Part shown: positions 17,014-53,249 of the stretch, in pieces
Layout: each line of letters begins with the position of its first letter
Position numbering within the stretch: the first letter of the stretch is position 1
From: Nitrospirota bacterium
GTDB taxonomy: Bacteria > Nitrospirota > Thermodesulfovibrionia > Thermodesulfovibrionales > SM23-35
Direction: 5' to 3'
DNA: 64,000 nucleotides
Assembly: GCA_040756135.1 (NCBI GenBank)
Contig: JBFLZS010000008.1
Span: 5,021 to 69,020, forward strand
Translations under genes and position numbers: made by a program
Notes under the pieces: generated by a model
The model's database searches: none
The model's input: only the letters and a program-made list of their open reading frames with translations
Told to the model about the DNA's origin: nothing

Positions 17014-19314
17014 ATGTTTAGATATTTATTCTTTTTATTTATCTTATTGAGTCTTTTTTCATGTGGTAGAGACAGTCAGTTTACTAATAGTAATCCAAGC
17101 AGTGTTTATTCAGATAAAAATATTCAAACGGATGGTTCAATCGCAAAGAGGGGGATGGCAGCAAGATATGTTCCTGGAGAAGTTCTGGTTAAATTCAAGA
17201 CAGGAACCTCTGCAAGCAGAGTGCATGTACTTAACAATGCATTAGGTGCAGTTAAGATAAAAGAAATCGAGCATATCGGAGTTCATCGAATAAAACTCCC
17301 TCACAAAATGAGTGTTGAAGATGCTGTTAAATATTACAAGGCGGAACCTGATGTGGAATATGCAGAACCGAACTATATTGTAAAAAAGGCTACCATCCCA
17401 AATGATCCGGATTTTAGTAAGCTTTGGGGACTCAATAATACAGGACAGATAGGAACCACTGATGCTGATATAGATGCGCCAGAGGCATGGGATATAACAA
17501 CAGGTTCAAATGATGTGATTATAGCTGTTATAGATACAGGAGTTGCTTATAATCATCCTGACCTTGCTGAAAATATATGGATTAACACGGAAGAACAGAA
17601 TGGCACCCCGGGGTCTGATGACGATGGGAATGGCTATATTGATGATATCTATGGATGGGACTTTATAGACAATGATGGCTATCCTGAGGATTATGATAGT
17701 CATGGGACTCATGTGTCAGGAACTATTGCTGCAAAGGGCAATAATGAAATAGGTATTGCTGGTGTGATGTGGTTAGCAAAGATAATGCCCATTAGGTTTT
17801 TAGGTGTGAGCGGTTGGGGTGATACAGGCAAAGCCGCAGAGGCAATAGTATACGCTGCAGATAACGGAGCGCGTATTATAAATGCGAGCTGGGGAAGCAG
17901 GGGTTATTCACAGGCCCTTTATGAGGCTATAGAATATGCACAGTCAAAAAATGTCCTTTTTGTTGCAGCGGCAGGCAATGAGGGAAATAACAATGATACT
18001 AATCCGTTCTATCCTGCCAGTTATAATCTCACAAATATTATCTCTGTTGCTGCTACAGATTATAATGATAAACTTGCCTCTTTTTCTAACTACGGGGCAA
18101 ACTCAGTGGATCTGGCGGCACCAGGAGTAGATATCTATAGCTCAATCCCTCTATTTATATATGATCCTCCTATTACAGTTTATAGTGAGAAGTTCGACAG
18201 TGCATCCGGAGAACTACCACTTCTGGGATGGTCCCGTGGAGGGACAAATTCTACATGGGCCGTAACTACAGGTACAGGAATAGACAACACGAACAGCCTT
18301 GAGGACAGTCCCGGAGGAGATTATCTTCCTAACACAAACTCTTGGGCAGGTTATATGACTCCTATTACATCTGTTAAGAATAACCGTTATACACTTTCGT
18401 TTAAATGGAGAGGGCATATTGACCCTACAATTTATGACTATTTAGATATTAATTACTCTCCTGACGGAATAAATTGGGACTGGGCAGACAGGACAAATGG
18501 AAATAATAGTAATTTTACTCAATACATAACCCGTGAAATCACTGCTGCGGCAGATTTTTACAATAGTTTTTATTTTGGTTTTGGTCTGGAATCTGATTCT
18601 ATTAGTAACTATGATGGTGTATACATTGATGATGTAGTCCTTACAAGAGAACCAATAAGTATAAGTGGGTATAATTATGAATCCTATGGGGGTACGTCAA
18701 TGGTTGCACCACATGTATCAGGGGTTGCAGGATTAATCCTTTCCCTGAATCCCGGTCTTTCTTATTCACAGGTCAAGGATATCATTTTAAACACAGTTGA
18801 TACAATTCCATCTCTTTCTGGCATTACCATGACAGGGGGCAGGGTAAATGCCATGAATGCCCTGCAAAATGCACTTCCTCCTACTGCGCCTGGTAGTCTT
18901 TCAGCCTCAGCGATATCAAGCAGCCAGATAGATCTTTCATGGACAGACAACTCCTCTAATGAAACAGGTTTCAAGATAGAAAGAAAAGTAGACGCAGGCG
19001 GGACATACTCCGAAATTGCAACGGTAGGGGCAAATATTACTACCAATAGCGATACAGGTCTTAGTGCCTCAACAACATATTATTACCGTGTAAGTGCGTA
19101 TAACGTTGCCGGAGATTCTTCTTATTCTAACGAGGTAAGTGTAACAACTCCGGAAGAAGGTACGGAAGAAGGTAAAGGCAGTGGGGGAGGGGCTTGTTCT
19201 ATCGGGATGGTTCATAGTTATCAAACAGCAGTGGCAGATACCATAGTTCTCATCACACCTTTATTAATTATTCTAATAATCAAAAGGTTTAGAAAATTCC
19301 AGGATAAGGCATAA
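17014..19314 (+). CDS. S8 subtilase lipoprotein with fervidolysin-type prodomain, jelly-roll-like insertion, Fn3 domain and Cys-containing C-terminal tag
   Basis: Lipobox LLSLFSC. Prodomain GEVLVKFK...VEYAEPNY. Catalytic contexts AVIDTGV, SHGTHVSGT and GGTSMVAPHVSG. Fn3 segment IDLSWTDNSSNETGFKIER. Tail GSGGGACSIGMVHSYQTAVADTIVLITPLLIILIIKRFRKF. Confidence 0.92.
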   Translation: MFRYLFFLFILLSLFSCGRDSQFTNSNPSSVYSDKNIQTDGSIAKRGMAARYVPGEVLVKFKTGTSASRVHVLNNALGAVKIKEIEHIGVHRIKLPHKMSVEDAVKYYKAEPDVEYAEPNYIVKKATIPNDPDFSKLWGLNNTGQIGTTDADIDAPEAWDITTGSNDVIIAVIDTGVAYNHPDLAENIWINTEEQNGTPGSDDDGNGYIDDIYGWDFIDNDGYPEDYDSHGTHVSGTIAAKGNNEIGIAGVMWLAKIMPIRFLGVSGWGDTGKAAEAIVYAADNGARIINASWGSRGYSQALYEAIEYAQSKNVLFVAAAGNEGNNNDTNPFYPASYNLTNIISVAATDYNDKLASFSNYGANSVDLAAPGVDIYSSIPLFIYDPPITVYSEKFDSASGELPLLGWSRGGTNSTWAVTTGTGIDNTNSLEDSPGGDYLPNTNSWAGYMTPITSVKNNRYTLSFKWRGHIDPTIYDYLDINYSPDGINWDWADRTNGNNSNFTQYITREITAAADFYNSFYFGFGLESDSISNYDGVYIDDVVLTREPISISGYNYESYGGTSMVAPHVSGVAGLILSLNPGLSYSQVKDIILNTVDTIPSLSGITMTGGRVNAMNALQNALPPTAPGSLSASAISSSQIDLSWTDNSSNETGFKIERKVDAGGTYSEIATVGANITTNSDTGLSASTTYYYRVSAYNVAGDSSYSNEVSVTTPEEGTEEGKGSGGGACSIGMVHSYQTAVADTIVLITPLLIILIIKRFRKFQDKA
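19177..19314 (+). other. Candidate C-terminal sorting signal (GGGACSIG, hydrophobic helix, KRFRKF)
   Basis: A tripartite architecture shared with 32441-32563 and, in decayed form, 14041-14145. Confidence 0.6.
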
Positions 19315-21467: not shown

Positions 21468-21552
21468 AACGCAGATTATCGCAGATTATTTACAGATGTT
21501 CACAGATGCATCTGTGGTAATCTGCATCTTTTCATCCGTGTTCATCTGTGTT
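21468..21552. repeat. Tandem-heptamer hairpin module (gcagatta / cagatg units) at the gspL-gspM junction
   Basis: gcagattatcgcagattatttacagatgttcacagatg|catctgtggtaatctgc...catccgtgttcatctgtg. The centre cacagatgcatctgtg is a perfect palindrome. Confidence 0.75.
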
Positions 21553-22606
21553 CCACTTCCTTCGCTGTTATCGCAAACAACATTTTGCCCTGTGTAGATG
21601 CCTTTGAATCAGATATATTTACATCATCAAAGAGACGTTCGAGCTTAACCTTTACCCGTTGAATATCACTCAAAGACGATGCCTCGCCTTTCAGGGTCAG
21701 ATTTCCTCTATCTGCTGTTATTTCATTAAAAATAACACCCTGTCTATCAATCTGAGAAAGATTAAGAAGCAGGTTAAGCGGGTTAACACCAATAAAAAAC
21801 TCCTCTCTGTTTTTTAATTCCTTCATATGGGATTTAAGCTGATAAAGCTCATTTGTTATATTTTTTTCTCCGGGAAAGATCCCTTGATATACCTTTCGCA
21901 TATCACTCTTAAAAGATGCTATCTCCTGCCTTGCAGATACAATTTTTAACAATAAGTCAGATGCAAGAACAATCGCAAGCAATATCGCAAGTACTGCTGT
22001 TACTTTCAGGGATTTCCTGGTTTTTTCAATACCTCGAGTATATGAAAACTCATCTCTTCTTAGATTTATAGTAGGCGCTATTATCTCTTCAATCGCCAGT
22101 GGTATCCTGTCTTTATCCTCTAAAGAAGGTGCAAGAAGTCTCGCTAAGTTAAAATCCTTAAGTACGTTTTTAAGTTCTAAGGAAGTTATAAACTCAGGAT
22201 CTATGTTGTATGATTTTAATCTTTCAAGAATCCTGCTGATAATTGTTTTCTCAATATATACAGCAAGTACCTGATATTTATCGTCAGATTTACCAACGAC
22301 AATATTATCGAAAACCATTTTTTCTACCCCCCCAAATATCACCCCATCGAGTTCGAATGGAAGTATCTCCCTTATCCTATCCTTATCAGAAAATGGCAAA
22401 TCAATGACCCTGAAATTAAGACTGCTTATAGGTAAACTCAAACAGGCATTCTCTATATCCTTTGTTAAATCAATAGAGAAGTCATACCCATCACGCATGG
22501 GATAACTTTTGCTATCCTTTAATTCGAATCTGCCATGCCTGACCTCGAATATGTAAGTCTCTATTTCCCCTTCTTTTATATCAATAAAAATAGATCTGCT
22601 CATCAA
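21542..22606 (-). CDS. gspL: Type II secretion system protein GspL
   Basis: 354 aa: a cytoplasmic actin-like N-domain, a single TM helix (VTAVLAILLAIVLASDLLL) and a periplasmic C-domain. Its start overlaps the gspK stop. Confidence 0.65.
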   Translation of the reverse strand: MMSRSIFIDIKEGEIETYIFEVRHGRFELKDSKSYPMRDGYDFSIDLTKDIENACLSLPISSLNFRVIDLPFSDKDRIREILPFELDGVIFGGVEKMVFDNIVVGKSDDKYQVLAVYIEKTIISRILERLKSYNIDPEFITSLELKNVLKDFNLARLLAPSLEDKDRIPLAIEEIIAPTINLRRDEFSYTRGIEKTRKSLKVTAVLAILLAIVLASDLLLKIVSARQEIASFKSDMRKVYQGIFPGEKNITNELYQLKSHMKELKNREEFFIGVNPLNLLLNLSQIDRQGVIFNEITADRGNLTLKGEASSLSDIQRVKVKLERLFDDVNISDSKASTQGKMLFAITAKEVEHR

Positions 22607-23505
22607 TATTCCTTCCAGTATTCAATCCTGTTATATGATGTATTAAGAACTGTCTCGATTATCCTTTTAACACCACCAGAGTCAGCGGTGGATTTTATGT
22701 AAAAATTCTTCCCCTCAACTGTTATCTTACCCATGAGTGACTGACCTATAGTTGTCTCAAACCCTGCAACTTTAAAAATTTGCTCCACTTTCTCAAAAGG
22801 CGTAACCTTCCTGTAATCAATCACCCTTTGCGCAAGCCCTTCTGTTATATTATCCGAAAGACACCTGAGAACAGGTTTTTCAGCTCCATTAATATTAATT
22901 TGTGGCGATCTCCAATCTCCGTAGGTGGTTATGTATGGCAGTAATTTATCATAATCCTTCCTGCTTATTCCATTTATCAAAAGGATCTCATCAACACTGA
23001 CAAGACGCGAATTTTTTGCGCCCACCTCGGAATCAGTTAGTCTTGACTCGCTATTCGTGTCAATCCAGTCTACTATTCTATCTGCGATCTTCTCATCTAA
23101 TGAAAGAATTTTCAAAAGTCTTTTGAATGAATTATAAGGACTATTCATATCACTTTCATTAATTATCTCATTCTCGGGGACAATAGAATTGATGTTAAAC
23201 TTAGAATTTTCATCTTCTATCCTTACCAATATCGTCCCATTAAAATCTTCAAAGGGATTCTCTACGGGAAGATCTATAGAACCCGGATATGAATAATTAG
23301 ATTTATTTAGCAGGTCTGATAAAAACCTTGCTGATACATTTATACCTGATCTTGCCATTATAGAAAGTCGTTGAGAATCCCGCCAGTTATAAAGATCGCT
23401 TGTACCGGTATAGACCCCATATGAAAATTCCACCACCATAGCAGTAATCAGAACAAGGGCCAACAGGGTTATAACTAATGCTATACCTTTTTGATTATTA
23501 AACAT
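22603..23505 (-). CDS. gspK: Type II secretion system minor pseudopilin GspK
   Basis: QKGIALVITLLALVLITAMVVEF gives a GspK-type N-terminus without the Glu5. The size and position are typical. Confidence 0.8.
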   Translation of the reverse strand: MFNNQKGIALVITLLALVLITAMVVEFSYGVYTGTSDLYNWRDSQRLSIMARSGINVSARFLSDLLNKSNYSYPGSIDLPVENPFEDFNGTILVRIEDENSKFNINSIVPENEIINESDMNSPYNSFKRLLKILSLDEKIADRIVDWIDTNSESRLTDSEVGAKNSRLVSVDEILLINGISRKDYDKLLPYITTYGDWRSPQININGAEKPVLRCLSDNITEGLAQRVIDYRKVTPFEKVEQIFKVAGFETTIGQSLMGKITVEGKNFYIKSTADSGGVKRIIETVLNTSYNRIEYWKEY

Positions 23506-23562
23506 CTCACCCGAAATTCCTTTTTATTAAGGTTCGGATAATAACACATGCAATGATTGAAA

Positions 23563-23635
23563 AATCCCTCCTAACCTCCCTTTGCCAAAGGGAGGTATTA
23601 CCCCTCTTTGGAAAAGAGGGGATAGGGGAGATTTT
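23563..23635. repeat. Family-B double-hairpin element, gspJ-gspK intergenic
   Basis: aaaatccctcctaacctccctttgccaaagggaggtattacccctctttggaaaagaggggataggggagatttt. The reverse-complement copy is at 24754-24827. Confidence 0.85.
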
Positions 23636-23664
23636 ACAAATATAATTTTGATCACAACTTTGCA

Positions 23665-24402
23665 TTAAATCATCTTCCCCACCCTCGGTCTTGACACATC
23701 AAAAAGGTCAACCTTTCTTCCTTTTATTATCATGGACAGACAGATCCTGATCTCACCGGGCATGCCCTTGGTTATGTCAGTATCCCACGTCTTCACCCAT
23801 CTGTCGTTGTATTTCGCTTCAATAGTAAACTCTTCAATATCCTCAATTATATCAACCCCTTCGGTTTCATCTGATAATCCCCCCAGCCCCCCTTTACTAA
23901 AGGGGGGTGAGGGGGGATTATCTTTATTAGCATAAGGGGATTCCACCTTCTTAAAGAGATTTAATTTCCCATCTTTTTCTTCTATGTAGTATGAAATCAT
24001 GGAAAGGCCGGGGCGCAAAGTTGAAAAGGTTGTAAAGGTAAGCTTCGTTGCCTGCTTACCGTAGATATCCCTGTCTTCAATCTTTAAAAATGTATTACTA
24101 TCATCCTTATAGAAAGAAGCCGAATCCAGTTCACGCCTTAAGATGTCAATCGCCTTTCTATATTCCTGAAGTTTCAACAGAGATTCGTCCATGCCTTCAA
24201 TCGCCCTATGGCTTAAGAAAAATGTGCTGTAGATTGCAGCAAGGACTATAGAAAGTATTGCAACAGCGATGAGTATCTCAATAAGGGTGAAACCACCCTG
24301 CCTCCCTTTACTAATAATCCCTCTCAATACCCCTTTATCAAATCCCCCCTTGCCCCCCTTTTCTAAAGGGGGGATGGGGGGATTACTTAAAAACAAACTC
24401 AT
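23665..24402 (-). CDS. gspJ: Type II secretion system minor pseudopilin GspJ (start uncertain; possible TTG at 24327)
   Basis: Prepilin-type site RQGG|FTLIEILIAVAILSIVLAAIYS. Family-A repeats lie in the leader or 5' region and internally (NPPSPPFSKGGLGGL). Confidence 0.8.
   Translation of the reverse strand: MSLFLSNPPIPPLEKGGKGGFDKGVLRGIISKGRQGGFTLIEILIAVAILSIVLAAIYSTFFLSHRAIEGMDESLLKLQEYRKAIDILRRELDSASFYKDDSNTFLKIEDRDIYGKQATKLTFTTFSTLRPGLSMISYYIEEKDGKLNLFKKVESPYANKDNPPSPPFSKGGLGGLSDETEGVDIIEDIEEFTIEAKYNDRWVKTWDTDITKGMPGEIRICLSMIIKGRKVDLFDVSRPRVGKMI
23876..23919. repeat. Family-A palindromic element, in-frame inside gspJ
   Basis: Sequence aatccccccagcccccctttactaaaggggggtgaggggggatt. Confidence 0.9.
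24341..24383. repeat. Family-A palindromic element at the gspI 3' end / gspJ leader
   Basis: Sequence aatccccccttgccccccttttctaaaggggggatggggggatt. Confidence 0.9.
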
Positions 24403-24868
24403 TAAGTTTTACCTCTTCTTTACCGGCCCTGACAGTAACAATAATCTCTGATATGCCAACATATGGTGACTCCTTAACAAAGGTCTCATAAGTATACCCT
24501 TCATAGGGTGTGTCAAATACCCCTTTTTCATTATCACGGCTTTTTTCTGCATCTGCAATCTTATTCTTTGCAAGAAGGGTTGCAATTGTGAGGGTCTCAT
24601 GCCTTTCGATGATACCTAAATGATAGTTCAGGGTATATATAAGGGTTACAAGGAGACCTCCAACAATGGCAAGGGCAAGGAGGACCTCAAGAAGGGTAAA
24701 GCCTGCTTTATAAGAATTATTAAGGGTCTTAAATTTGAATTGAAATTGTTTAAAAAATCTCCCCTTGCCCCTCTTTTCCAAAGAGGGGAATCCCTCCCTT
24801 TGGCAAAGGGAGGTTAGGAGGGATTTTACAATTAATGCCGTTATGATTATGAGACTATTAATAAACAT
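24383..24868 (-). CDS. gspI: Type II secretion system minor pseudopilin GspI
   Basis: Prepilin-type site YKAG|FTLLEVLLALAIVGGLLVTLIY. The long leader contains family-B repeat codons (SLCQREGFPSLEKRGKGRF). Confidence 0.8.
   Translation of the reverse strand: MFINSLIIITALIVKSLLTSLCQREGFPSLEKRGKGRFFKQFQFKFKTLNNSYKAGFTLLEVLLALAIVGGLLVTLIYTLNYHLGIIERHETLTIATLLAKNKIADAEKSRDNEKGVFDTPYEGYTYETFVKESPYVGISEIIVTVRAGKEEVKLNEFVFK
24754..24827. repeat. Family-B double-hairpin element inside the gspI leader-coding region
   Basis: aaaatctccccttgcccctcttttccaaagaggggaatccctccctttggcaaagggaggttaggagggatttt. Confidence 0.85.
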
Positions 24869-24908
24869 TAAAAATTTAAATTTCTGGATTTCCTTAATTT
24901 TGAATCTT

Positions 24909-25460
24909 TCATTTTGAATTTTGAGTTATCTTTATTCTCCCACTCAGATGGTTGAGGGTAATTGTCATCCCTTTATCTCCTTTACCCATATGAACGCTGA
25001 TATTCTCTTGAATCCCAAGGGGGCCAAAAAAAAGTGTAATCTCGCCATCTGAGACCTTTCCTTTTGATTGCGTGGTTACACCGGTCATATCATCGAACCT
25101 TTTCGTCTTTTCCCCATCCGGTCCTACCCAGTAGACGGTACCTTCATCAAGGTCAAATTTCATCGAAAAGGTCTCCTTCCTTGATACAGCGCTGTCGTTC
25201 ATATACCTCAGTATTGAGGCAATCTCTCTTGACTCAGATTTGAGCTTACTCTCGCCAAAACCAGCAAAAGACGGAAAGATAAGAGCCATAACAATAGAGA
25301 TGATGAACATAACAACGATTAGTTCTAACAATGTGAAGCCCATTTCAGGTTGGTTTTTGCTTGGAACTTGGAACTTGGAACTTGGAACTTTTTTATTGCA
25401 TATCCCAGTTCTTGATATCCGCATTCTTGCCATCTCCACCTTCTTTTCCATCAGCGCCAT
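24909..25460 (-). CDS. gspH: Type II secretion system minor pseudopilin GspH (start uncertain)
   Basis: Prepilin-type site PEMG|[24 protein letters not shown]. The candidate ATG starts all overlap the gspG 3' end. The leader includes a (ggaactt)x4 tandem repeat. Confidence 0.75.
25347..25392. repeat. Tandem heptamer (ttggaac)x4 in the gspH leader-coding region
   Basis: ttggaacttggaacttggaacttggaactt at 25361-25390. Confidence 0.85.
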
Positions 25461-25824
25461 AACTTATTAAATCGAAATCACCGTAAAGGCCTGGCGATAT
25501 ATATATATAGGGATTGCCCCATGGGTCAAGCGGAATTTTCTTTTGCTCAAGGTATCCACCTTCCCTGTATTTCTGTGGTATCTGGCCTGCGGTTGGTTTC
25601 TCTATAAGTGATATAAGTCCCTGCTCGGTGTCTGGATAAAAGCCGTTGTCGAGCTTAAAGAGCTTGAGTGCCGTCTCAAAATTTTTTATCTGGACCTTTG
25701 CCTCTGCAATGCGTGCATCATCAGTCCGGCCTATTATCTTTGGTGCAACAATAGCTGCCAGGATGCTGAGTATAAATACAACCACAATTATCTCAAGAAG
25801 GGTAAAACCTTTATTATTAGTCAT
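25393..25824 (-). CDS. gspG: Type II secretion system major pseudopilin GspG
   Basis: MTNNKG|[23 protein letters not shown]...DPWGNPYIY...GADGKEGG. This is canonical GspG. Confidence 0.93.
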
Positions 25825-25840
25825 TTATTCCTCCCATTCT

Positions 25841-25938
25841 ATTCCAAGATTCATGATTCACGATGCAGGATACATGATGCATGATTCGTGTATTTTATTT
25901 ACATGTATCTTGTATCCGTATCTTGCATCCTGTTTCCT
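25841..25938. repeat. Tandem-heptamer block module upstream of gspG
   Basis: A block (catgatt/catgatg) followed by a block (gtatctt/gcatcct). Confidence 0.7.
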
Positions 25939-25945
25939 GACTAAT

Positions 25946-26185
25946 TAGAGTCTGTCCATAAAGTCGTATTTTGTCATTGTCCGGCTTGACCGGACAATCC
26001 AGAACATATTGAAAACACTGGATTCCCCGATCAAGTCGGGGAATGACTAATTGTATAAGTCATAAAGTCAGTTTTATTGTCATTCCTGCGGAGGCAGGAA
26101 TCCAGAACCTTTTGAAAATACTGGATTCCGGCTTAAGGACTGCCGGAATGACAGATAGTAAACATCAGTTTATACATAGACACTA
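25946..26185. repeat. MITE-like nested-hairpin element inside the gsp operon (gspF-gspG spacer)
   Basis: Imperfect terminal inverted repeats tagagtctgtccataaagt ... cagtttatacatagacacta enclose four family-C hairpins. The element ends 1 nt from the gspF stop. Confidence 0.8.
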
Positions 26186-26186
26186 A

Positions 26187-27362
26187 TCATTTTATCAACT
26201 GGTTCAACTGGAATATCGGCAAAAGAACTGCAAGGACTATAAATCCGACAATAAGCCCCATAAAAAGAATCATTGCAGGTTCAAGAAAAGAAAGGGCCTT
26301 CTGTACCTTTCTCGAGAATTCTTCCTCATACGAATCTGCAGCTTTCTTCAGCACCTCAATTAGTCTCCCACTCTTCTCTCCAGTTGCGATTAATTGAAGA
26401 AGCACAGGCGGGAATCCCTCAAGGGATGCAGAAAGCCCTGCCCCTTCTGCAACCCGTTTGCCACCTTCAATCACCTTTGTCTCAAGTATCTTATTCCCGA
26501 TAGACTTTGCAGCAAGCTCAAGCGACCTCAAAACAGGAAGACCCCCTCCGAGCAAAGAACTAAATGTCCTCGTAAATCGTCCAAAATAAAGGCTCTGTAA
26601 TATATTTCCGGGCAAACGTAAAACAAGCCTATCAATAAATAATCTTTTCCTTTCACTCAGTCTTCTAAAACCGAATACACCTGCCAGAATTATTCCCAAT
26701 AAAAGCCACCAGTAGTTTTGAAAAATATCACTAATGGTTATAAGCACAATAGTGATAAAAGGCAGGGCGCTCTCTGTATCCTTAAATATCTTTGTTATCT
26801 TCGGTATAACAAAGATAAACAAAAAGGAGAGAACAACAAAACCAATACAGATCATAAAAATAGGATAAACCATTGAGGTTCTTACCTTTGATCTGAGGTT
26901 AGCCTGTGCCTCCAAAAAATCTGACAGACGTCTGAGAATATCATCAAGATTTCCGCCTGCCTCTCCTGCAGCAACCATATTTACATAAAACTCAGGGAAA
27001 ACCTTTTCATAATCCTCAAGCGCCTTTGAAAAGCTCGACCCTCCGGCGACCCTTTCCTTTATGTTCACTAACATGTTTTTCCAGAAACCCTTATTTTCCT
27101 CAGAGATTGAACTCAGCGCATCCATCAGGGTCACACCTGATGAAAGTAAGGTTGATAACTGCCTTGTTATTGATGGGAGAAGGGATATATCAGACCTGTG
27201 GAATAGACTGAAACCCCTTTTATAAACAGCTTCCTTTACATTTTTTGGGTAAAGACCTGAGTCTTTAAGCCTTAAGACTGCATCCTTGAGGCTGTTTGCC
27301 TCAAGGGTCCCTGCTACCTCCGAGCCGTCTGACCTGTATCCTCTATACTGAAATATCGGCAT
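26187..27362 (-). CDS. gspF: Type II secretion system inner-membrane platform protein GspF
   Basis: A duplicated GspF/PilC domain architecture with three TM segments. It lies between gspE and gspG. Confidence 0.9.
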   Translation of the reverse strand: MPIFQYRGYRSDGSEVAGTLEANSLKDAVLRLKDSGLYPKNVKEAVYKRGFSLFHRSDISLLPSITRQLSTLLSSGVTLMDALSSISEENKGFWKNMLVNIKERVAGGSSFSKALEDYEKVFPEFYVNMVAAGEAGGNLDDILRRLSDFLEAQANLRSKVRTSMVYPIFMICIGFVVLSFLFIFVIPKITKIFKDTESALPFITIVLITISDIFQNYWWLLLGIILAGVFGFRRLSERKRLFIDRLVLRLPGNILQSLYFGRFTRTFSSLLGGGLPVLRSLELAAKSIGNKILETKVIEGGKRVAEGAGLSASLEGFPPVLLQLIATGEKSGRLIEVLKKAADSYEEEFSRKVQKALSFLEPAMILFMGLIVGFIVLAVLLPIFQLNQLIK

Positions 27363-27386
27363 ATATTATAAATACCTAAAATATAA

Positions 27387-27430
27387 ATCCCCCCTCACCC
27401 CCCTTTACTAAAGGGGGGAGTGGGGGGATT
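27387..27430. repeat. Family-A palindromic element, gspE-gspF intergenic
   Basis: Sequence aatcccccctcacccccctttactaaaggggggagtggggggatt. Confidence 0.9.
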
Positions 27431-27436
27431 TTTCAT

Positions 27437-29005
27437 TTATATTTCAACAGCATCCTTTTGCGTTACTCGCAGGACTTCTTCAAGTGTAGTAATGCCCATC
27501 ATAACCTTTTCGATGCCGTCCTGACGCAGTGTCTTCATCCCTCTTGAGACTGCATAATTTTTTATGCTCTGAGAATCTATCTTCTCTGTAATCATGGGTC
27601 GTATCTCGTTATCTATCACAAGAAGCTCAAAGATTCCTGTTCTTCCAAAATATCCCTTGCCTTTACAATTATCACAGCCTTTACCTTTGTAAAGCATAAA
27701 AGGGGCAAGGGGGAAGGGGGAAGGGGCAAGTTTATCATGACCCATGACCCATGACCCATGACCCCTAAAATATTCAATTTCTACATCAGAAGGCTCATAC
27801 GATACCTTGCAGTGAGGACATATTGTCCTTACAAGTCTTTGCGCAATAACAGTCGTGAGTGATGATGCAACAAGAAATGGTTCAATGCCCATATCTATGA
27901 GTCTGACAAGGGCACTTGGTGCATCATTCGTATGAAGGGTGCTTAAAACGAGGTGGCCTGTGAGCGATGCCTGCATTGCGATTTCAGCAGTCTCGAGGTC
28001 CCTTATCTCACCGACCATTATTACATCCGGGTCCTGCCTCAATATTGATCTAAGTCCAGAGGCGAATGTAAGCCCTATTTTAGGATTCACATGAACCTGG
28101 CCAATACCCTTCAATTGATATTCAATGGGATCCTCGACTGTTATTATATTTTTCTCCTCTGTATGAATCCTGTTAAGGGCTGCATAGAGGGTTGTAGTCT
28201 TACCGCTTCCTGTAGGACCTGTGACAAGTATAATCCCATCAGGTTTTTGAAGGTATTCTTCAAGCCTTTTTTCGTCATCCTTGCTGAAACCAACCTCCCA
28301 TAGACCCAGTAGGCCATGCCTCCTGTCAAGAAGCCTGAGTACCGCCCTCTCGCCATAAGATGTAGGTATTACAGAGACCCTTATGTCTATATCCCTTCCA
28401 CCGAGCAGGAGTCTTATCCTTCCATCCTGTGGCAGCCTCTTTTCAGCGATATCAAGATTTGACATTATCTTAACCCTGCTTATCAGGGCTTCCTGAATTA
28501 TCTTTGGAGGTGTCAACACCCTGTGCAATACTCCGTCTATCCTGAACCTGACATCGAGTTCTCTCTCGAAAGGTTCGATATGGATATCGCTTGCCCTTTC
28601 TTTTACTGCCTGAAGAAGAAGGGCATTGAGGAGTCTTATGATGGGAGCCTCTTCTGTTAACTCAAGTAGGTCCTTTGGCGCCTCAAATTCTGTTGCAACA
28701 GATGAAAGGTCCTCCCCGCTTATGGTATCCATTACTTCTTCTGCAGAACCTATCTGGCCATAAAACCTGTTAATTGCATTTAGAATAACACCTGCTGTTG
28801 CCTTTAACGCCCTCGGCTTCAAACCAAGAGATCTCGAGATCTCAGCAAGCGCCAGTATCCCTCTATCATCTGCAACAGCTCCGAATAGTTCAGAATTATT
28901 TTTCTTTATGGGGAATATCCGATTGTTTTTAACAAAGCTGACAGGAATATCCTTCAAAATGGATAACTCTACATCCTCATCTTTTATTATTTCGATAGTT
29001 TCCAT
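27437..29005 (-). CDS. gspE: Type II secretion system ATPase GspE
   Basis: Walker A GPTGSGKTTT, Asp box, Walker B ILRQDPDVIMVGEIRD, His box and a tetracysteine CPHC...CDNC. A repeat-derived insertion lies between the Cys pairs. Confidence 0.93.
   Translation of the reverse strand: METIEIIKDEDVELSILKDIPVSFVKNNRIFPIKKNNSELFGAVADDRGILALAEISRSLGLKPRALKATAGVILNAINRFYGQIGSAEEVMDTISGEDLSSVATEFEAPKDLLELTEEAPIIRLLNALLLQAVKERASDIHIEPFERELDVRFRIDGVLHRVLTPPKIIQEALISRVKIMSNLDIAEKRLPQDGRIRLLLGGRDIDIRVSVIPTSYGERAVLRLLDRRHGLLGLWEVGFSKDDEKRLEEYLQKPDGIILVTGPTGSGKTTTLYAALNRIHTEEKNIITVEDPIEYQLKGIGQVHVNPKIGLTFASGLRSILRQDPDVIMVGEIRDLETAEIAMQASLTGHLVLSTLHTNDAPSALVRLIDMGIEPFLVASSLTTVIAQRLVRTICPHCKVSYEPSDVEIEYFRGHGSWVMGHDKLAPSPFPLAPFMLYKGKGCDNCKGKGYFGRTGIFELLVIDNEIRPMITEKIDSQSIKNYAVSRGMKTLRQDGIEKVMMGITTLEEVLRVTQKDAVEI
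27700..27765. repeat. Tandem-heptamer block module, in-frame in gspE (HGSWVMGHDKLAPSPFPLAPF)
   Basis: A (gggg[c/a]aa) x4 block, a spacer gtttatc, then (atgaccc) x4. Confidence 0.85.
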
Positions 29006-29059
29006 ATCTATGAAAACATTAATGATGATTTATTGTCACAAACGAACATGAAAATCAGT

Positions 29060-29104
29060 AATCCCCCCATGCCCCCCTTTAGTAAAGGGGGGTTAGAGGG
29101 GATT
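29060..29104. repeat. Family-A palindromic element, gspD-gspE intergenic
   Basis: Sequence aatccccccatgcccccctttagtaaaggggggttagaggggatt. Confidence 0.9.
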
Positions 29105-29110
29105 TGTCCT

Positions 29111-31405
29111 TCATCTAATCTTCATTATATAATTCGGCTCTGCGTATTCTACTTCATTATATTTGCTGAATATCTTAACTGCCTCTTTAACGTCCTGCCC
29201 CTTCTTCAGTTTTATATGATAAAGCCCCCTCGGTTTCAATATGGATATAATAGATGCACCTTCAGTTGACAGTATTTCAGATATCCTCTCCTCAGAGGTC
29301 TCTTCCTTGAATTTTATAAGCAACTCCCCTTGTTTATATCTTTCCTCGGATTTAGCGAACTCTAACCCTTTATTATTGGTCAACCTCGAAAGTTGTTCGG
29401 CCTCTTTAATTATATGCGGGGTCAGAAACACAAGCAGGTTAGTCTTCTTCTTTTCCATTGTCTTGTTTTTGAACAGCCATCCAAGGATAGGAATATCCCC
29501 AAGCAATGGAACCTTGGCTATACTCTCTTCTTCCCTCTCCTCCATAAGGCCACCTATCACTACTGTCTGGTTATCCTTAACAACCACGGATGTCTTTGTC
29601 GAGCGTTTTGTTGTAGTCGGACCTATTGTCGTTATAATCTCTGTTGATTCCTGCTTTACGGCTGATATCTCCTGATAAATATCGAGCTTAATATAATCGC
29701 CCTCAGTAATCTGCGGCGTAATGCGCAATGTTATACCCACATCCTTCCTCTCGACAGAGGTCAATACAGTGGTGGTTGTTGAAAGGTCCCCCTGTCTTTG
29801 CGTTATGAAGGGTACATTCTCGCCGACAAGAATCTCAGCCTCCTTATTGTCAGATGTGAGGATCTGTGGTGTTGAAAGAACATTCACCGCACCATTGAAC
29901 TCGTTAAGGCTGAAAAGGACAGCAAATCCAGGAATTGTAAGGGTTGATGTTGTAATTGTTCCATCTGAATCAACCGTTGTTAAAGGCACATCTAAGAAGT
30001 TCCCCATGCCTCCGGCTGTTAGCCCTGTAAGTCCATAGATAACATTCTGTAGCGATGTGGCATCCATAGTTCCAAAACCACCTATTACTACAGGTTCTCC
30101 ATCTTTCTCCGCAGTAACCCTCCATTTTGTGCCAAGTTCTCTCAGTTTATCAATCGATGCCTCGACAATCATCGCCTCTACATAAACCTGCTTTCTTCTT
30201 TTATCGAGTTGCTTAATAACCTGTATAAGATTCTGATAATCAGATGGTGACGCAACTATTACAAGTGAATTAGTTGCCTTATCAGGTGTTATAGTTATAC
30301 CACCGGCTGCCTCAAATGGTGTAACCGGAGCCCCTGTTGCACCAGAGGCGACCTGTCTAACAGGTTGTACACCTTTCAGTATTCCTTCAAGGACCTTTGA
30401 TAACTCGGTTGCATCTGCATTCTCAAGGAAATATACATTTATCCTTCCCTGTGCCTCGGGTGATGGTACGTCAAGGAGGGCAATAAGTCCCTTAAGCGAT
30501 TCCCTCATGCCTCTATCTCCAAAGAGGACAACGGCATTCAGCCTTGAGTCAGCTACTGCCTTTGCCTCCTCCGCTGCTGGCTGTCCAGGCACAGCCTTTG
30601 TCTTTCTACTTATACCATCATTGAGTATTTTTGTAATAGCATCAGCGCTTGAGTATTTAAGAAGAACAATCTCGGGTTCTTCCCTTACTGATGGCTGGTC
30701 AATAGCCTCAACGATGGAGAGGATCTTCTCTATATTCAGGCCTGAATCAATCACTAAAAGTAAGTTGCCAGGGCCAAAGGCTGAAATATGCCCATCCTTT
30801 GACACGACAGGTTGGAGAAACTTGAGCGCATCATCTGAAGATATATATCTTAAAGAAATCAACCTTGCCATATAACTTTCGTTAACAGGCAATCTTTCTG
30901 TAGCAATCTGCATTCCCCTCTGCTTTGCCTCGGAGGCAGGAATAATCTTGTATGCATCAACACCTGAAGGAATAACCGTGAAGCCCTTAAGCTCAAGCAC
31001 CGCTGTGAAGAGATCAAAGGCATCATCAACAGATAATTTTGAAGGAGCTATTATTGTTATCTTACCTTTCACCCTCTCATCAAAGATAAAATTTTTCCCT
31101 GTAATCTCACTTATAAATTTTGTTATAGTTGAAAGCTCGACATCTACAAAGTTAAATGTAACCTTCTTATCCTTGACTAAATCCTTTTTACTCTCTGTTA
31201 CATCTGTCTCAGCTATGGAATCGGTTACAACAATGATTGACATATAACAGCCAAAGAATATTAGGCATGCAACAAGTGAAAGGGCAGTTATTGATTTTCT
31301 AAATATTTTCACCTTAAAATCCCCCCATCCCCCCTTTTCTAAAGGGGGGCGAGGGGGGATTACTTCTATTGTTTTTTGTGTCTCTATAGGACAAATTTGT
31401 TTCAT
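29111..31405 (-). CDS. gspD: Type II secretion system secretin GspD with a C-terminal subtilase-prodomain-like module (alternative GTG start at 31312)
   Basis: N0 domain (VTFNFVDVELSTITKFISEITGKNFIFD), N1-N3 domains and a secretin core (VVIGGLMEE...VPLLGDIPILGWLFKN...LLVFLTPHII). The last 75 aa align to the S8 prodomains. Confidence 0.93.
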   Translation of the reverse strand: MKQICPIETQKTIEVIPPRPPLEKGGWGDFKVKIFRKSITALSLVACLIFFGCYMSIIVVTDSIAETDVTESKKDLVKDKKVTFNFVDVELSTITKFISEITGKNFIFDERVKGKITIIAPSKLSVDDAFDLFTAVLELKGFTVIPSGVDAYKIIPASEAKQRGMQIATERLPVNESYMARLISLRYISSDDALKFLQPVVSKDGHISAFGPGNLLLVIDSGLNIEKILSIVEAIDQPSVREEPEIVLLKYSSADAITKILNDGISRKTKAVPGQPAAEEAKAVADSRLNAVVLFGDRGMRESLKGLIALLDVPSPEAQGRINVYFLENADATELSKVLEGILKGVQPVRQVASGATGAPVTPFEAAGGITITPDKATNSLVIVASPSDYQNLIQVIKQLDKRRKQVYVEAMIVEASIDKLRELGTKWRVTAEKDGEPVVIGGFGTMDATSLQNVIYGLTGLTAGGMGNFLDVPLTTVDSDGTITTSTLTIPGFAVLFSLNEFNGAVNVLSTPQILTSDNKEAEILVGENVPFITQRQGDLSTTTTVLTSVERKDVGITLRITPQITEGDYIKLDIYQEISAVKQESTEIITTIGPTTTKRSTKTSVVVKDNQTVVIGGLMEEREEESIAKVPLLGDIPILGWLFKNKTMEKKKTNLLVFLTPHIIKEAEQLSRLTNNKGLEFAKSEERYKQGELLIKFKEETSEERISEILSTEGASIISILKPRGLYHIKLKKGQDVKEAVKIFSKYNEVEYAEPNYIMKIR
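29114..29338 (-). other. Subtilase-prodomain-like module fused to the GspD C-terminus
   Basis: GspD YKQGELLIKFKEETSEERISEILSTEGASIISILKPRGLYHIKLKKGQDVKEAVKIFSKYNEVEYAEPNYIMKIR, against S8 YVPGEVLVKFKTGTSASRV...HRIKLPHKMSVEDAVKYYKAEPDVEYAEPNYIVKK, and YKEGELLVKFKSG...ERVKLPQGLSVKDAIMQYMSDPNVEYAEPNYIKR. Confidence 0.8.
31318..31361. repeat. Family-A palindromic element in the gspD 5' region (IPPRPPLEKGGWGDF)
   Basis: Sequence aatccccccatccccccttttctaaaggggggcgaggggggatt. Confidence 0.9.
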
Positions 31406-31418
31406 GTTTACCCATATC

Positions 31419-32294
31419 TTACTTTATCTGGTAAGTCATTGTCATCTTTGATCCACCCCTTATTAAATCAATCTGAACCCTTTCCAGACCTTTCAAGGCT
31501 GTAAATGCCTGAAGGGCCCTCTCAGGGTTAGATATCTCATATTCATTAATCCTGAGAAGTACGTCGCCGTTCTGGAGACCGAGGCTGTGGTAGATACCGC
31601 CTGGTTTAACCTCACTCAAAATAAAGCCTTCCTGTTTGCCATTAATAATATTAGGTTTAAGCCTTGCATCAGTCATTATCTGGTTTGGATTAGAGATCGC
31701 CTGCTGAACCCTTCCCTGATCAACTATATAAGTGCCCCTTCCCACCTTCTGGGCAAATGTAGAGGTAAAAGAGTGTTCCCCCGAAGCAGGTCTTTTGATC
31801 TCTTTTACCTTTACATCTTCAAGGAGAATCTCTGTTGTCTTTTCCCCCTGCCTGAGCAGTACCTTATCTTTTTTAACGCTATAAAGTTTCCCGAGGCCAA
31901 ACACAGAGTCTCCGACCTTAAAGACATCCTGCATCCCCGATCTGTCCATAAAAACCCCGTAGCTCATTTTTTTAGGCCCCACTACTGTCCCGATAAGTTC
32001 AATATCTATCTTTTGTGCTTTATCATTCATCGAAGCGGTTAATAGCCTTATCTCTTCTCCGGAGAAGCCAAAAGGGTTATTCTTGAGTATCGAAGAATAC
32101 TCTGTAAGTTGCATTTTTTGCCGGCTTGCGCCAACATTTTTTGATACGGCTATCTCTCTCTTCAGGGTTTTCTCTTTATAAAAATAGTTAGAGATTATAT
32201 CTCGTATAAGGAAAAGGGTTGAAAGAATAAGAAATATGCCTATTAAGATGTTTAGATAAAAGATGTTTCTCTCTGTGAAAAGGCCTGATTTCAA
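31419..32294 (-). CDS. gspC: Type II secretion system protein GspC (TM helix plus PDZ domain)
   Basis: N-terminal TM helix IFYLNILIGIFLILSTLFLI and a C-terminal PDZ-like segment GFILSEVKPGGIYHSLGLQNGDVLLRINEYEISNPERALQAF. It lies directly upstream of gspD. Confidence 0.8.
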   Translation of the reverse strand: MKSGLFTERNIFYLNILIGIFLILSTLFLIRDIISNYFYKEKTLKREIAVSKNVGASRQKMQLTEYSSILKNNPFGFSGEEIRLLTASMNDKAQKIDIELIGTVVGPKKMSYGVFMDRSGMQDVFKVGDSVFGLGKLYSVKKDKVLLRQGEKTTEILLEDVKVKEIKRPASGEHSFTSTFAQKVGRGTYIVDQGRVQQAISNPNQIMTDARLKPNIINGKQEGFILSEVKPGGIYHSLGLQNGDVLLRINEYEISNPERALQAFTALKGLERVQIDLIRGGSKMTMTYQIK

Positions 32295-32368: not shown

Positions 32369-32413
32369 AATCCCCCTTAATCCCCCTTTACTAAAGGGGG
32401 ATTAAGGGGGATT
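32369..32413. repeat. Family-A variant (C5/G5) palindromic element, S8-gspC intergenic
   Basis: Sequence aatcccccttaatccccctttactaaagggggattaagggggatt. Confidence 0.9.
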
Positions 32414-32440: not shown

Positions 32441-32563
32441 TTATCTCCTTCGCCTCATTAATGCTATAACAACCAAAGGTATCATCATCACTGCAAGGTC
32501 AGCGATTGCTGTTGGCGTATTTTGCCTCGGGCCTATGGAACAACTTCCTCCGCCGCCACTATG
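32441..32563 (-). other. Candidate C-terminal sorting signal (GGGGSCSIG, hydrophobic helix, RRRR)
   Basis: The same tripartite layout as 19177-19314. Confidence 0.6.
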
Positions 32564-34396
32564 CCCACTTTCTGGTAAGGGGGTTGTAGTAGATACCTCG
32601 GTTGAATAAAAAGACTCTGCAATGTCGTTATATGCCTTTATCCTGTAAACATATATCGTATTAGGTGTCAATCCGCTATCTGTAAAGGATAAGGAATTCG
32701 GCGGCAATGAAGGCTGTATATCTGTGTAAGTGCCTCCGCTAATCTTTCTTTCTATCTTATATCCACCTTCACCTGTTGCATTATCTGACCATGTAAGTGA
32801 GATCTGGGTTGGAGATATACCAGTGGCAGTAAGATTTGTTGGAGTCCTTAAAAACGATAGTGCCTTATATGCATTAATCCTTCCGCCAGTCTGTATCCAG
32901 CCGCTCAGTGTCGGCAATGGATCTACCATCCTGAGAATTGCGGTACGAATCTGAGAATAATCAAACTGTGTATTATGAATCCCATCATAATAACTGTAAA
33001 GCAATCCTGCAAGACCTGATACGTGGGGGGCTGCCATGGAAGTCCCTTCGAAAAACTCTAAAATTCCATATTCATTCAGAAGAATTGTGCTGAGGATATA
33101 TACACCAGGCGCTGCTACATCTACAGAGGTTGGGCCGAAATTACTGAAAGATGCCCGCTGGTCATTCTGGTCAGTAGCAGCAACAGAAATGATATTGGGG
33201 AGGTCATAGCTGGCCGGATACATCGGCGTCAGATCATTATTGTACCCTTCGTTACCAGCAGCAGCTATAAGCAAAATACCCGCTGTGTTTGCCTCTGCTA
33301 TGGTATCGTATTCGGCCTGAGAATATCCATAGCCACCGAAACTGGCATTTATTGCCTTTATGTCTATACCACTATTTTTCAATAGTATCGCATAATCCAA
33401 GGCTTCAATCTCGTCATCTGTTGTCCCATATCCATCTGCATTAAGAAATTTAAGGGCCATTAGCTTCACATACCACATTACCCCTGATACCCCTGTTCCG
33501 TTGTTTCCTACAGCCCCTATAATGCCAGCAACATGTGTCCCGTGTCCATATTCATCCATAGGGTCATTGTCTGGTGATTTTGAAGTCGTACAATTTCCCT
33601 CATCATCAAATTCTTCACATGTCGTGAAGTCCCATCCCTTGCAGTCATCTATAAATCCATTTTCATCATCGTCATCTTCTAAATCATTAGTATAGCCGGC
33701 TTCCCCGGGTTGCAGACCGGTGGAATCCTCATCAACCTTGCCATCTCCGTCATCGTCTACCTCACATATCCCTGGGCATCCATCGCCGTTTGCGTCACCA
33801 ATAGCCTCTTTATTATTAGTCCATATATTTCCAGCCAAATCGGCATGATTATAATCAATCCCTGTATCAAGGACAGCTATAACAACGCTGTAACTACCTG
33901 TTGAGATATCCCATGCCTCCGGTGCATCTATATCGGCATCAACAGTGCCACCAGCATACGTGCCCGTATTGTGCAGGGCCCATTGGTTTCCGAAATAAGT
34001 GTCATTCGGTATCCTGGACAAGGCGCGCTTTATATAATTAGGCTCTGCGTATTCCACATTCGGGTCAGACATATACTGCATTATTGCATCCTTTACTGAC
34101 AGACCCTGTGGCAGTTTTACACGCTCAAGATTAGGCACAATAGTAAACCTCTTCTTCACAGATGCACCAACCGCCTGATGGATTTTAAGTGACGATGTTG
34201 TTACAACGCCGGATTTGAATTTAACGAGCAACTCTCCCTCTTTGTACTTCCCTTTTTCCATCTGAGAGATTATGGATTGTGCGGTGATTTTTGTACCACT
34301 AATCTCCTTTGAAGTATCTGAAGAGATGCTTGTGGTCTTTTCATTGCCGCATGAGGCAAGAATCAAAACCATTAACAGATAGAATAATTTCTTCAT
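32441..34396 (-). CDS. S8 subtilase lipoprotein with fervidolysin-type prodomain, acidic Ca-binding-like insertion, Fn3 domain and Cys-containing C-terminal tag
   Basis: Lipobox LILASC. Prodomain GELLVKFK...VEYAEPNY. Catalytic contexts AVLDTGI, YGHGTHVAG and EGTSMAAPHVSG. A D-rich insertion lies between the Asp and His. Fn3 segment ISLTWSDNATGEGGYKIER. Tail HSGGGGSCSIGPRQNTPTAIADLAVMMIPLVVIALMRRRR. Confidence 0.92.
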   Translation of the reverse strand: MKKLFYLLMVLILASCGNEKTTSISSDTSKEISGTKITAQSIISQMEKGKYKEGELLVKFKSGVVTTSSLKIHQAVGASVKKRFTIVPNLERVKLPQGLSVKDAIMQYMSDPNVEYAEPNYIKRALSRIPNDTYFGNQWALHNTGTYAGGTVDADIDAPEAWDISTGSYSVVIAVLDTGIDYNHADLAGNIWTNNKEAIGDANGDGCPGICEVDDDGDGKVDEDSTGLQPGEAGYTNDLEDDDDENGFIDDCKGWDFTTCEEFDDEGNCTTSKSPDNDPMDEYGHGTHVAGIIGAVGNNGTGVSGVMWYVKLMALKFLNADGYGTTDDEIEALDYAILLKNSGIDIKAINASFGGYGYSQAEYDTIAEANTAGILLIAAAGNEGYNNDLTPMYPASYDLPNIISVAATDQNDQRASFSNFGPTSVDVAAPGVYILSTILLNEYGILEFFEGTSMAAPHVSGLAGLLYSYYDGIHNTQFDYSQIRTAILRMVDPLPTLSGWIQTGGRINAYKALSFLRTPTNLTATGISPTQISLTWSDNATGEGGYKIERKISGGTYTDIQPSLPPNSLSFTDSGLTPNTIYVYRIKAYNDIAESFYSTEVSTTTPLPESGHSGGGGSCSIGPRQNTPTAIADLAVMMIPLVVIALMRRRR

Positions 34397-40686: not shown

Positions 40687-41294
40687 TCTCCACCTCCGCA
40701 CATATTAAAATCTGCTAAATAAATGTCATATTCCGTCTGGAAACTACCCTCTTCTCCAAAATTATTCACATATTTGCAATTGTACTGTGCTATATAATGC
40801 GTGGGATACTCTCCAGGTACATTTGTACCATAATATATAGCATTCCAATAAGCCTGTTTTCTGTCTATATCAATTAAGGTAACGTTGCATGAATTAGAAC
40901 CTTCTATGATAGGACAGTTCGGATAGATATTCAAAGATTCAATTATAGGTGAAGATGGATCCTCAATAGCTTTTTTGTAAGTTATCGTACATTGTTCAAC
41001 ACTTGCAGGATAAGGATCAACTGTGCTGTCTGGATTCAGTTTTTCAGATTCTATAGAAATTGTTGCATCTTCCCTTGTAAGGCCTGGCTCAGATGTCCCA
41101 CCAGCACAACAATCAGGACAGGAATATACATCAAGATCAGGAGTTTCACTTGTTATACTGACTGACTTAATATTGATCCCTGTGTCCTCACTTCCTGAAG
41201 AACCCGGTGAGCCCGGACCTTCACCACACCCCCAAAGAAAGACTGAAAGCAGAAGATAGAAAATAGAAAACAGGAAAAAATACTTTCTCTTCAT
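40683..41294 (-). CDS. Hypothetical lipoprotein
   Basis: The likely start is the ATG at 41294, with AGGAGG 5 nt upstream. Signal MKRKYFFLFSIFYLLLSVFLWGC (lipobox). Cys-rich, with no recognised domain. Confidence 0.65.
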   Translation of the reverse strand: MKRKYFFLFSIFYLLLSVFLWGCGEGPGSPGSSGSEDTGINIKSVSITSETPDLDVYSCPDCCAGGTSEPGLTREDATISIESEKLNPDSTVDPYPASVEQCTITYKKAIEDPSSPIIESLNIYPNCPIIEGSNSCNVTLIDIDRKQAYWNAIYYGTNVPGEYPTHYIAQYNCKYVNNFGEEGSFQTEYDIYLADFNMCGGGE

Positions 41295-53204: not shown

Positions 53205-53249
53205 AATCCCCCTTAATCCCCCTTTGCTAAAGGGGGACTGAGGGGGATT
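53205..53249. repeat. Family-A variant palindromic element between convergent DUF721 and clpX genes (possible bidirectional terminator)
   Basis: Sequence aatcccccttaatccccctttgctaaagggggactgagggggatt. Confidence 0.85.

Follow-up and report, generated by a model that had tools for sequence, protein, structure and literature searches.

A subtilase prodomain-like C-terminal domain on the type II secretion secretin GspD of Thermodesulfovibrionia

Why would the outer-membrane channel of a type II secretion system (T2SS) end in a module that resembles the prodomain of a subtilase, and what might such a module do there? The question is raised by the secretin gene gspD in a 64,000-nucleotide stretch of DNA from a Nitrospirota bacterium (GenBank assembly GCA_040756135.1, contig JBFLZS010000008.1, positions 5,021–69,020), which we refer to as the window and to which all coordinates given here refer. 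A first-pass annotation of this DNA had noted that the last 75 amino acids of GspD resemble the N-terminal prodomains of two S8 proteases (subtilases) encoded on either side of the T2SS operon, and had proposed that the secretin could use these modules to dock, hold inactive or hand over the proteases at the channel. Its sequence, profile matches and predicted fold all show the tail to be homologous to subtilase prodomains, and we find it to be a genuine and selectively maintained C-terminal domain of the Thermodesulfovibrionia T2SS secretin which comes from the PF22148 (I9-like) prodomain family.

The prodomain-like module spans amino acids 690–764 of GspD (29114..29338, minus strand; amino acids are numbered throughout according to a 764-amino acid open reading frame, ORF). 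The Pfam match to PF22148 (Fervidolysin_NPro-like) begins earlier, at amino acid 680 (29368), and extends to amino acid 758 with an E-value of 4e-15 in the whole protein, and the tail alone gives an above-threshold match across the model (E 2e-16, 60.6 bits against a cut-off of 21, model positions 4–81 of 81). BLASTP aligned the tail with the 17014–19314 protease with 32/74 identities (43%, ungapped, E 6e-17) and with the 32441–34396 protease with 31/79 identities (39%, one gap, E 6e-13), and the homology claimed for both neighbouring prodomains is borne out by these values. A hidden Markov model (HMM) built from GspD tails only recovered exactly three modules from the six-frame translation of the window, and these were the tail itself and the two neighbouring prodomains (E 1.5e-22 and 4.7e-18). 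The mechanically defined ORF (29111..31405, minus strand, ATG at 31405) translates into 764 amino acids with no internal stop and a C-terminus of ...YKQGELLIKFKEETSEERISEILSTEGASIISILKPRGLYHIKLKKGQDVKEAVKIFSKYNEVEYAEPNYIMKIR, which agrees with the earlier description of a module in frame and placed at domain boundaries.

No match at E ≤ 10 was obtained when the tail alone was compared with PDB sequences using phmmer, and a profile made from 46 modules was required to reach fervidolysin (1r6v, E 6e-5) and the subtilisin E and BPN' propeptides (1scj and 1spb). AlphaFold2 modelling of amino acids 668–764 with an alignment of 78 orthologues produced a β-α-β-β-α-β module with block predicted local distance difference test (pLDDT) values of 87–93, in which a four-stranded antiparallel sheet has two helices on one face. 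A structural search of the PDB with Foldseek, as had been suggested in the first-pass annotation, returned subtilase prodomains as the best matches, headed by pro-subtilisin E (3whi), the BPN' prosegment (1spb_P) and the PC1/3 prodomain bound to furin, with further matches to the subtilisin E propeptide (1scj_B), fervidolysin (1r6v), PCSK9 prodomains, the Tk-subtilisin propeptide and the free inhibitor POIA1. The Foldseek probability was 1.00 for the prodomain matches and 0.91 for POIA1, and the target-normalised template modelling (TM) score was 0.7–0.83 for stand-alone prodomain chains.

The same fusion was sought in GspD orthologues and proved to be conserved throughout. PF22148 and secretin domains were found together in 119/120 of the best GspD homologues (65–90% identity), where the one exception was a truncated entry, and public annotations name these proteins just GspD. 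A genome scan using one genome per GTDB species provided 80 loci, nearly all labelled Nitrospirota, Thermodesulfovibrionia or Thermodesulfovibrionales and including Candidatus (Ca.) Sulfobium and Ca. Magnetobacterium. Secretin and module were found in a single ORF in 75 of the 80, in two more the module was present but separated from the secretin (by a frameshift in an alanine run in one case and by a masked run of Ns in the other), and the contig ended before the module in the remaining three; the module was present in 77/77 of the species-level genomes with the 3' end of gspD on the contig, and the fusion was retained down to 53% identity (Ca. Magnetobacterium). The ratio of non-synonymous to synonymous substitution rates (dN/dS), computed against the two closest orthologues, was 0.13 and 0.14 for the tail compared to 0.10–0.12 for the secretin domain and 0.14–0.15 for N0–N3. 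We also note that dS in the N0–N3 part of gspD (0.32–0.35 against loci L004 and L005) is approximately threefold lower than in the secretin and tail parts (0.8–1.1), and this regional contrast hints at recombination inside the gene.

The remainder of the protein is a conventional T2SS secretin. Translation of gspD almost certainly begins at the GTG at position 31312, for a gene at 29111..31312 (minus strand, with the stop codon at 29111–29113) and a protein of 733 amino acids, because the longer ORF crosses an intergenic palindrome at 31318–31361 and the orthologues (710–750 amino acids) begin at the equivalent of V32. The 733-amino acid protein has a signal peptide (VKIFRKSITALSL...) which is likely to be cleaved between SIA and ETD, and as the orthologues have a signal peptidase I-type signal without a conserved lipobox, this GspD is not a liposecretin. 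Pfam identifies an N0 domain (PF21305, amino acids 84–154, E 1.4e-24), three Secretin_N repeats (PF03958, E 4.8e-35) and a C-terminal Secretin barrel domain (PF00263, amino acids 503–667, 29405..29899, minus strand, E 7.5e-53), the arrangement of the T2SS GspD class, with no S8 domain in the protein, and the solved GspD 6i1x matches at E 3e-43. The gene lies in a T2SS operon (21542..32294, minus strand) that comprises gspC (31419–32294, with a PDZ domain), gspD, gspE (27437–29005), gspF (26187–27362), pseudopilin genes, gspK and gspL, and the gene order is identical in the distant orthologous loci L001 and L002.

Between the Secretin core and the module is a short linker (amino acids 668–689, 29339..29404, minus strand) which aligns with the α11-like helix at the start of the S-domain in solved GspDs (6i1x, 5wq7 and 5wln) and is modelled as a helix with low confidence. 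The alignment to the solved GspDs ends at amino acids 683–693, and a complete S-domain with the pilotin-binding α12 helix is not found. The module therefore takes the place of no more than the distal part of the S-domain, to which pilotins bind, and the earlier suggestion that the tail sits in the place of an S-domain needs to be narrowed accordingly, since the first ~22 amino acids after the core are still the S-domain start. In secretins, only the β-lip region is located in the outer membrane and the rest is periplasmic, including the S-domain outside the barrel, the C-terminal helix of which is the binding site of lipoprotein pilotins (PMC6532946). Because the linker is only ~22 residues long and some variants of the tail bear a SPOR domain, we infer that the module should be periplasmic and outside the secretin barrel, just under the outer membrane, with one copy per subunit.

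When 1.84 billion cluster representatives were searched exhaustively with the tail, 789 matches were obtained at E ≤ 1e-3. All of the secretin-type matches belong to one GspD clade with 48–70% identity in the secretin part; variants within this clade (P0124, P0123, P0162, P0143 and P0139) have two tandem modules, or a long acidic P/E-rich linker followed by a C-terminal SPOR domain. The best matches that are not secretins fall into three groups, the first consisting of small proteins of 100–140 amino acids in which a signal or lipoprotein peptide precedes a single module and which end 5–6 residues past an EPNY motif, the second of tandem two-module proteins, and the third of S8 proteases that have, besides their normal N-terminal prodomain, another module at the extreme C-terminus. 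In the S8 proteases with two modules (P0141, P0154, P0157 and P0200) the GspD tail resembles the C-terminal copy most closely, and these C-terminal modules are natural fusions of module and protease. The likeness to the prodomains of the neighbouring subtilases is one of homology, as had been claimed, but the tail is closer to the free-standing and C-terminal modules than to those prodomains. The chains of the C-terminal and free modules end most commonly at the fifth residue after EPNY (+5, in 28/99), with a further 20 ending at +6.

The single-module secreted or lipoprotein PF22148 proteins (P0128, P0131, P0135, P0137, P0138, P0158, P0181, L084 103–432 and others) form a large and uncharacterised family, and small proteins with two modules in tandem include P0132, P0133, P0207 and P0226. 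We suggest that free-standing PF22148 modules are probably bacterial propeptide-like inhibitors of subtilases. A homology search with the free-standing module P0128 recovered two proteins only, and the free module of L084, the one locus that could be used, ends in a real stop codon and is next to a glycosyltransferase gene, an uninformative neighbour.

The end of the tail shares several features with those parts of prodomains that contact proteases. The YAEPNY motif (amino acids 754–759, 29129..29146, minus strand), in which E, P and N hardly vary across tails, prodomains and free-standing modules, is followed by a C-terminal extension of five residues, IMKIR (amino acids 760–764, 29114..29128, minus strand), the last of which is at the prodomain P1 position. 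When aligned by profile with 1scj_B and 1spb_P, YAEPNY falls on the YVEEDH of the subtilisin E and BPN' propeptides, and the ungapped continuation of this alignment places R764, the end of GspD, on the tyrosine at P1, the last residue of the cleaved propeptide. The processing site is 4–5 residues past EPNY when anchored on the mature N-terminus of deseasin MCP-01 (3vv3), with what we take to be the mature N-terminus of thermitase as a second anchor. In the BPN' complex (1SPB), the enzyme's two surface helices are capped by E69 and D71 of the motif, and propeptide residues 72–77 sit in the S-sites. More generally, prodomains bind with the sheet on helices α3 and α4 and the C-terminal extension in the cleft (PMC10580911).

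Chain ends are concentrated at a few positions past EPNY in 121 GspD sequences (+5 in 46, +8 in 47, +6 in 10, and earlier in 4), and 110/115 have Q, K, R or H at +5. Across all classes of module the only near-invariant residues are E, P, N and one Phe, and a basic residue at +3 is common to tails, prodomains and free modules. Per-column conservation in the tails correlates with that in cis prodomains (r 0.66) and in free modules (r 0.74), with Y44, E66 and R22 of the tails in agreement with the free modules and not with the cis prodomains, and no strong tail-specific conserved patch was evident in the comparison with prodomains and free modules. The five-residue extension keeps its conserved pattern although the last three residues of GspD are disordered in the model (pLDDT <50, with a mean of 61 for the final block). 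These features argue for protease binding having been retained. We also considered the C-terminal pentapeptide as a ligand for the PDZ domain of GspC and rejected this, as the tails end in Q, K or R and not in a hydrophobic residue.

Both of the neighbouring subtilases are predicted lipoproteins with PF22148, Peptidase_S8 and fn3 domains and intact Asp, His and Ser motifs. The first is encoded directly upstream of gspC (32441..34396, minus strand; lipobox LILASC, prodomain at ~34028–34246) and the second downstream of the T2SS operon (17014..19314, plus strand; lipobox SLFSC, prodomain at ~17167–17382). A third S8 protease in the window (14193–16526) has an Inhibitor_I9 prodomain instead of PF22148 and also keeps the Asp, His and Ser motifs. 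We note in passing that a large insertion of ~170–220 amino acids (window positions 17970–18690) separates the oxyanion Asn (AAGN, 319) of the 17014 protease from its catalytic Ser (GTSMVAP, 560), and that the two arms of a 76-nucleotide inverted repeat, 83% complementary, are found just downstream of the I9-type S8 gene (14043–14118) and within the 3'-terminal part of the gene for the 17014 protease (19204–19279). A role for the tail as a trans-acting foldase for subtilases that lack prodomains was considered and rejected, as all three S8 genes in the window have prodomains of their own and the apparently prodomain-less S8 ORFs in related loci are frameshift fragments.

In related genomes, a PF22148 S8 gene was found within 10 kb at 18/83 loci, directly before gspC and on the same strand at 10/49 loci with enough upstream sequence, and within 10 kb downstream at 12/46 loci with enough downstream sequence, so that adjacency is limited to about a fifth to a third of these genomes. 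A lipobox of the form ...[LIV]x[AGS]C-G is present in 18/19 of the adjacent subtilases with a complete N-terminus and in both of the window proteases. T2SS-adjacent lipoprotein S8 genes were seen at L011, L016, L027, L028, L030, L032, L034, L035, L038, L039, L051, L066, L070 and L072, and in the window the lipobox and following Gly are encoded within 17014–17070 and 34340–34396. The lipid anchor of these subtilases is on the prodomain side of the processing site, and autoprocessing would therefore leave a lipid-anchored prodomain holding the mature enzyme. Given this recurrent operonic link, the lipoprotein subtilases are plausible partners of the tail, and we regard them as probable cargo of this T2SS.

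Our preferred reading, which we hold tentatively, is that the core function of the tail may be to bind the catalytic domain of a PF22148-type subtilase in trans, in the manner of a product-type inhibitor. We would place the tail in an in-trans branch of PF22148 because of the contact motif, the fixed chain end, the conserved but partly disordered extension, the likeness to free modules, and the existence of fusions between modules and S8 proteases. The β-sheet face and E-P-N turn of the tail would bind the catalytic domain, and the flexible C-terminal pentapeptide would occupy the active-site cleft like a cleaved, product-form propeptide, so that a mature subtilase would be tethered and silenced at the secretin. 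Such binding might serve to catch prematurely activated enzyme, to protect the secretin, or to concentrate lipoprotein cargo at the pore, and the physiological role of the tail would then be that of a safety catch or of docking.

Several observations weigh against protease binding as the function of the tail. Some ~70–80% of related loci have no subtilase gene within 10 kb, including L001 and L002 where the operon is conserved, and while tails share more identity with prodomains of the same locus (37.1%) than with those of other loci (35.7%, permutation p 0.005), this is weak evidence because the excess amounts to roughly one residue and could stem from one lineage. The Foldseek E-values are modest, from ~4e-3 upward, as expected for a domain of 75 amino acids, and the E-P-N motif could be required by the fold itself. 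The variants with SPOR domains or two modules do not stop at the P1-equivalent position, and the tail is expected to be positioned off the presumed route of cargo through the periplasmic vestibule.

The main rival to protease binding is that the tail has a structural or assembly role only, with the prodomain fold replacing the distal S-domain or a pilotin and binding no protease. We consider this role, in which the tails would encircle the barrel as a collar or touch the outer membrane, the peptidoglycan or some other T2SS component, possible but less probable. Small α/β domains are the usual ring-building units of secretins, the tail occupies the place of the pilotin-binding segment, and we saw neither a pilotin gene nor a lipobox on GspD. 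A structural role would also explain the conservation of the tail with or without nearby subtilase genes, and the SPOR domain added in some variants suggests that the C-terminal region anchors the secretin in the envelope. It explains the conserved protease-contact features less well, however, since the strictest residues (E-P-N, the basic residue at +3 and Q/K/R at +5) are protease contacts in prodomain complexes and the chain end has a fixed place with respect to P1. Moreover, the tail has no specific conserved surface when compared with free-standing modules, and these and the C-terminal modules on S8 proteases are its nearest relatives.

A third and rather unlikely explanation is that the tails are cargo receptors which recruit subtilases, or exchange with their lipid-anchored prodomains, to feed the T2SS. 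The evidence for protease binding applies equally here, the operon opens with a lipoprotein subtilase gene in the window and at 10/49 loci, and the tails would lie level with cargo lipoproteins anchored in the outer membrane's inner leaflet. Hand-over at the channel is nevertheless the least supported part of the first proposal because the tail is expected to be outside the barrel and not in the path of the cargo, distant from the periplasmic entrance. A prodomain that is tightly bound normally has to be degraded before it is released (PMC10580911), which would be wasteful for a secretin subunit. At its most elaborate, which we consider equally improbable, fifteen tethered prodomain mimics would capture mature lipoprotein subtilase, possibly by prodomain exchange, and so couple inhibition, docking and export; as pure speculation, the lipoprotein cargo could in turn act as a pilotin for the secretin.

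It is very unlikely that the tail is instead a substrate or sensor which is trimmed by a subtilase, for example at the +5/+6 bond, to couple maturation or anchoring of the secretin to protease activity. Approximately half of the tails reach three amino acids beyond the P1-equivalent residue, some variants continue after the conserved Q or K at +5 with the P/E-rich linker and SPOR domain, and the residues that follow (VPPEGSD or IPEGSD) resemble the start of mature subtilases (xIPNDP), but this is purely an analogy between sequences, and the window GspD stops exactly at +5 with nothing left to cleave. Finally, we exclude the alternative offered in the first-pass annotation that the tail is a non-functional fossil, the 5' fragment of a subtilase gene fused to gspD by a deletion, as well as an assembly or frameshift artefact, for although there are paralogous prodomains nearby and a repeat (29060–29104) just downstream of the gspD stop, the fusion is conserved across the class (77/77 informative species genomes and >119 protein clusters), the tail is under purifying selection (dN/dS 0.13–0.14), the only two split cases are those with the alanine-run frameshift and masked N-run, and the repeat next to which the deletion was supposed to lie belongs to a common type of intergenic palindrome that occurs at least 15 times in the window.

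The tail can be compared with four known systems. It is like subtilase prodomains (PF22148, related to Inhibitor_I9; 1R6V, 1SPB, 1SCJ and the Tk-subtilisin complexes) in sequence, in the β-α-β-β-α-β fold, in the E-P-N turn (E-x-D in subtilisin), and in having a C-terminal extension of equal length to P1, but unlike them it is located at the C-terminus of a secretin and not N-terminal to an S8 domain, is not released by autoprocessing, and cannot be the intramolecular chaperone of its own chain. The free inhibitors of MEROPS family I9 (Pleurotus POIA1, yeast PBI2/IB2 and plant SPI-1) also have the prodomain fold with no protease in the chain and act in trans, with the free C-terminus presumably placed in the active site; the Foldseek matches of the tail include POIA1, and the tail likewise has a free C-terminus a few residues past the last strand (five amino acids after EPNY). 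These inhibitors are soluble single-domain proteins, whereas the tail is fused to GspD in all orthologues and is tethered to an outer-membrane channel, presumably with ~15 copies per multimer as in solved GspD pores.

The S-domain and pilotin systems (PulD–PulS, GspD–AspS and EpsD–EpsS) resemble the tail in that the relevant segment comes after the barrel and follows an α11-like helix, and pilotins and the candidate partners of the tail, the subtilases, are alike lipoproteins. They differ in that the tail has no α12 helix and is a globular domain of 75 amino acids with an unrelated fold, and no pilotin homologue was identified. Secretins with domains for anchoring in the envelope (AMIN on PilQ, and the GspAB/GspB links to peptidoglycan) also have an extra periplasmic domain, and some members of our GspD clade add SPOR; on the other hand, PF22148 is without known peptidoglycan-binding activity and AMIN-type domains are not homologous to the secretin's own cargo.

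The component families are known and the combination is new, and it is clade-wide in at least 77 species-level genomes. The first-pass annotation had considered the fusion undescribed, and our literature search for the fusion, PF22148 and prodomain-like or other C-terminal architectures of secretins found no description of it; a publication on the Deinococcus T2SS makes no link to a protease. To our knowledge, no secretin has a domain homologous to part of its cargo. The recognition of folded cargo is a long-standing question for the T2SS, and a selected, clade-wide fusion of this kind offers a concrete and testable physical link between the channel and a defined class of substrate, and points to a way in which dangerous proteases might be silenced in the periplasm. 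If the tails were cargo receptors, recognition of cargo by a T2SS secretin would for the first time be evident from sequence, and if they are only structural, they would still be a new solution to pilotin-independent secretin assembly. The free-standing and C-terminal PF22148 modules probably belong to a class of inhibitor that has so far been studied mainly in fungi and plants.

The palindrome mentioned above is a repetitive extragenic palindrome (REP)-like element of ~44 nucleotides with the form AATCCCCCC-n-CCCCCCTTT-n-AAAGGGGGG-n-GGGGGGATT, and the copies in the window are almost all intergenic. One copy, previously referred to as the family-A repeat, lies between gspD and gspE (29060..29104) and another between gspC and gspD (31318..31361), where it is read through by the over-long gspD ORF. 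As copies lie between most of the T2SS operon genes, the one at 29060–29104 is unrelated to the fusion. Further copies were noted at 1655–1698, 12997–13045, 20837–20880, 23879–23920, 24341–24384, 27383–27426, 32369–32413, 43874–43930, 53205–53251 and 59676–59722. Read-through of the palindrome yields spurious peptides of the PPLEKGGWGDF type and over-long ORF calls, as at the start of gspD.

Upstream of the subtilase and T2SS block are three further genes (34601–38674, 38818–40701 and 41686–44061), which encode a 1357-amino acid protein with five HYDIN/ASH-type Ig-like domains, a Big_1/invasin-like protein, and a second secretin of the PilQ type which has an AMIN domain and is without a prodomain tail. 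A second family of intergenic repeats of 85–160 nucleotides with nested hairpins (GTCATTCCCCGACTTGATCGGGGAATCCAG...) and the appearance of miniature inverted-repeat transposable elements (MITEs) is found in both orientations at 41343–41482, 47113–47197, 48399–48564, 61228–61393, 25939–26065 and 562–635.

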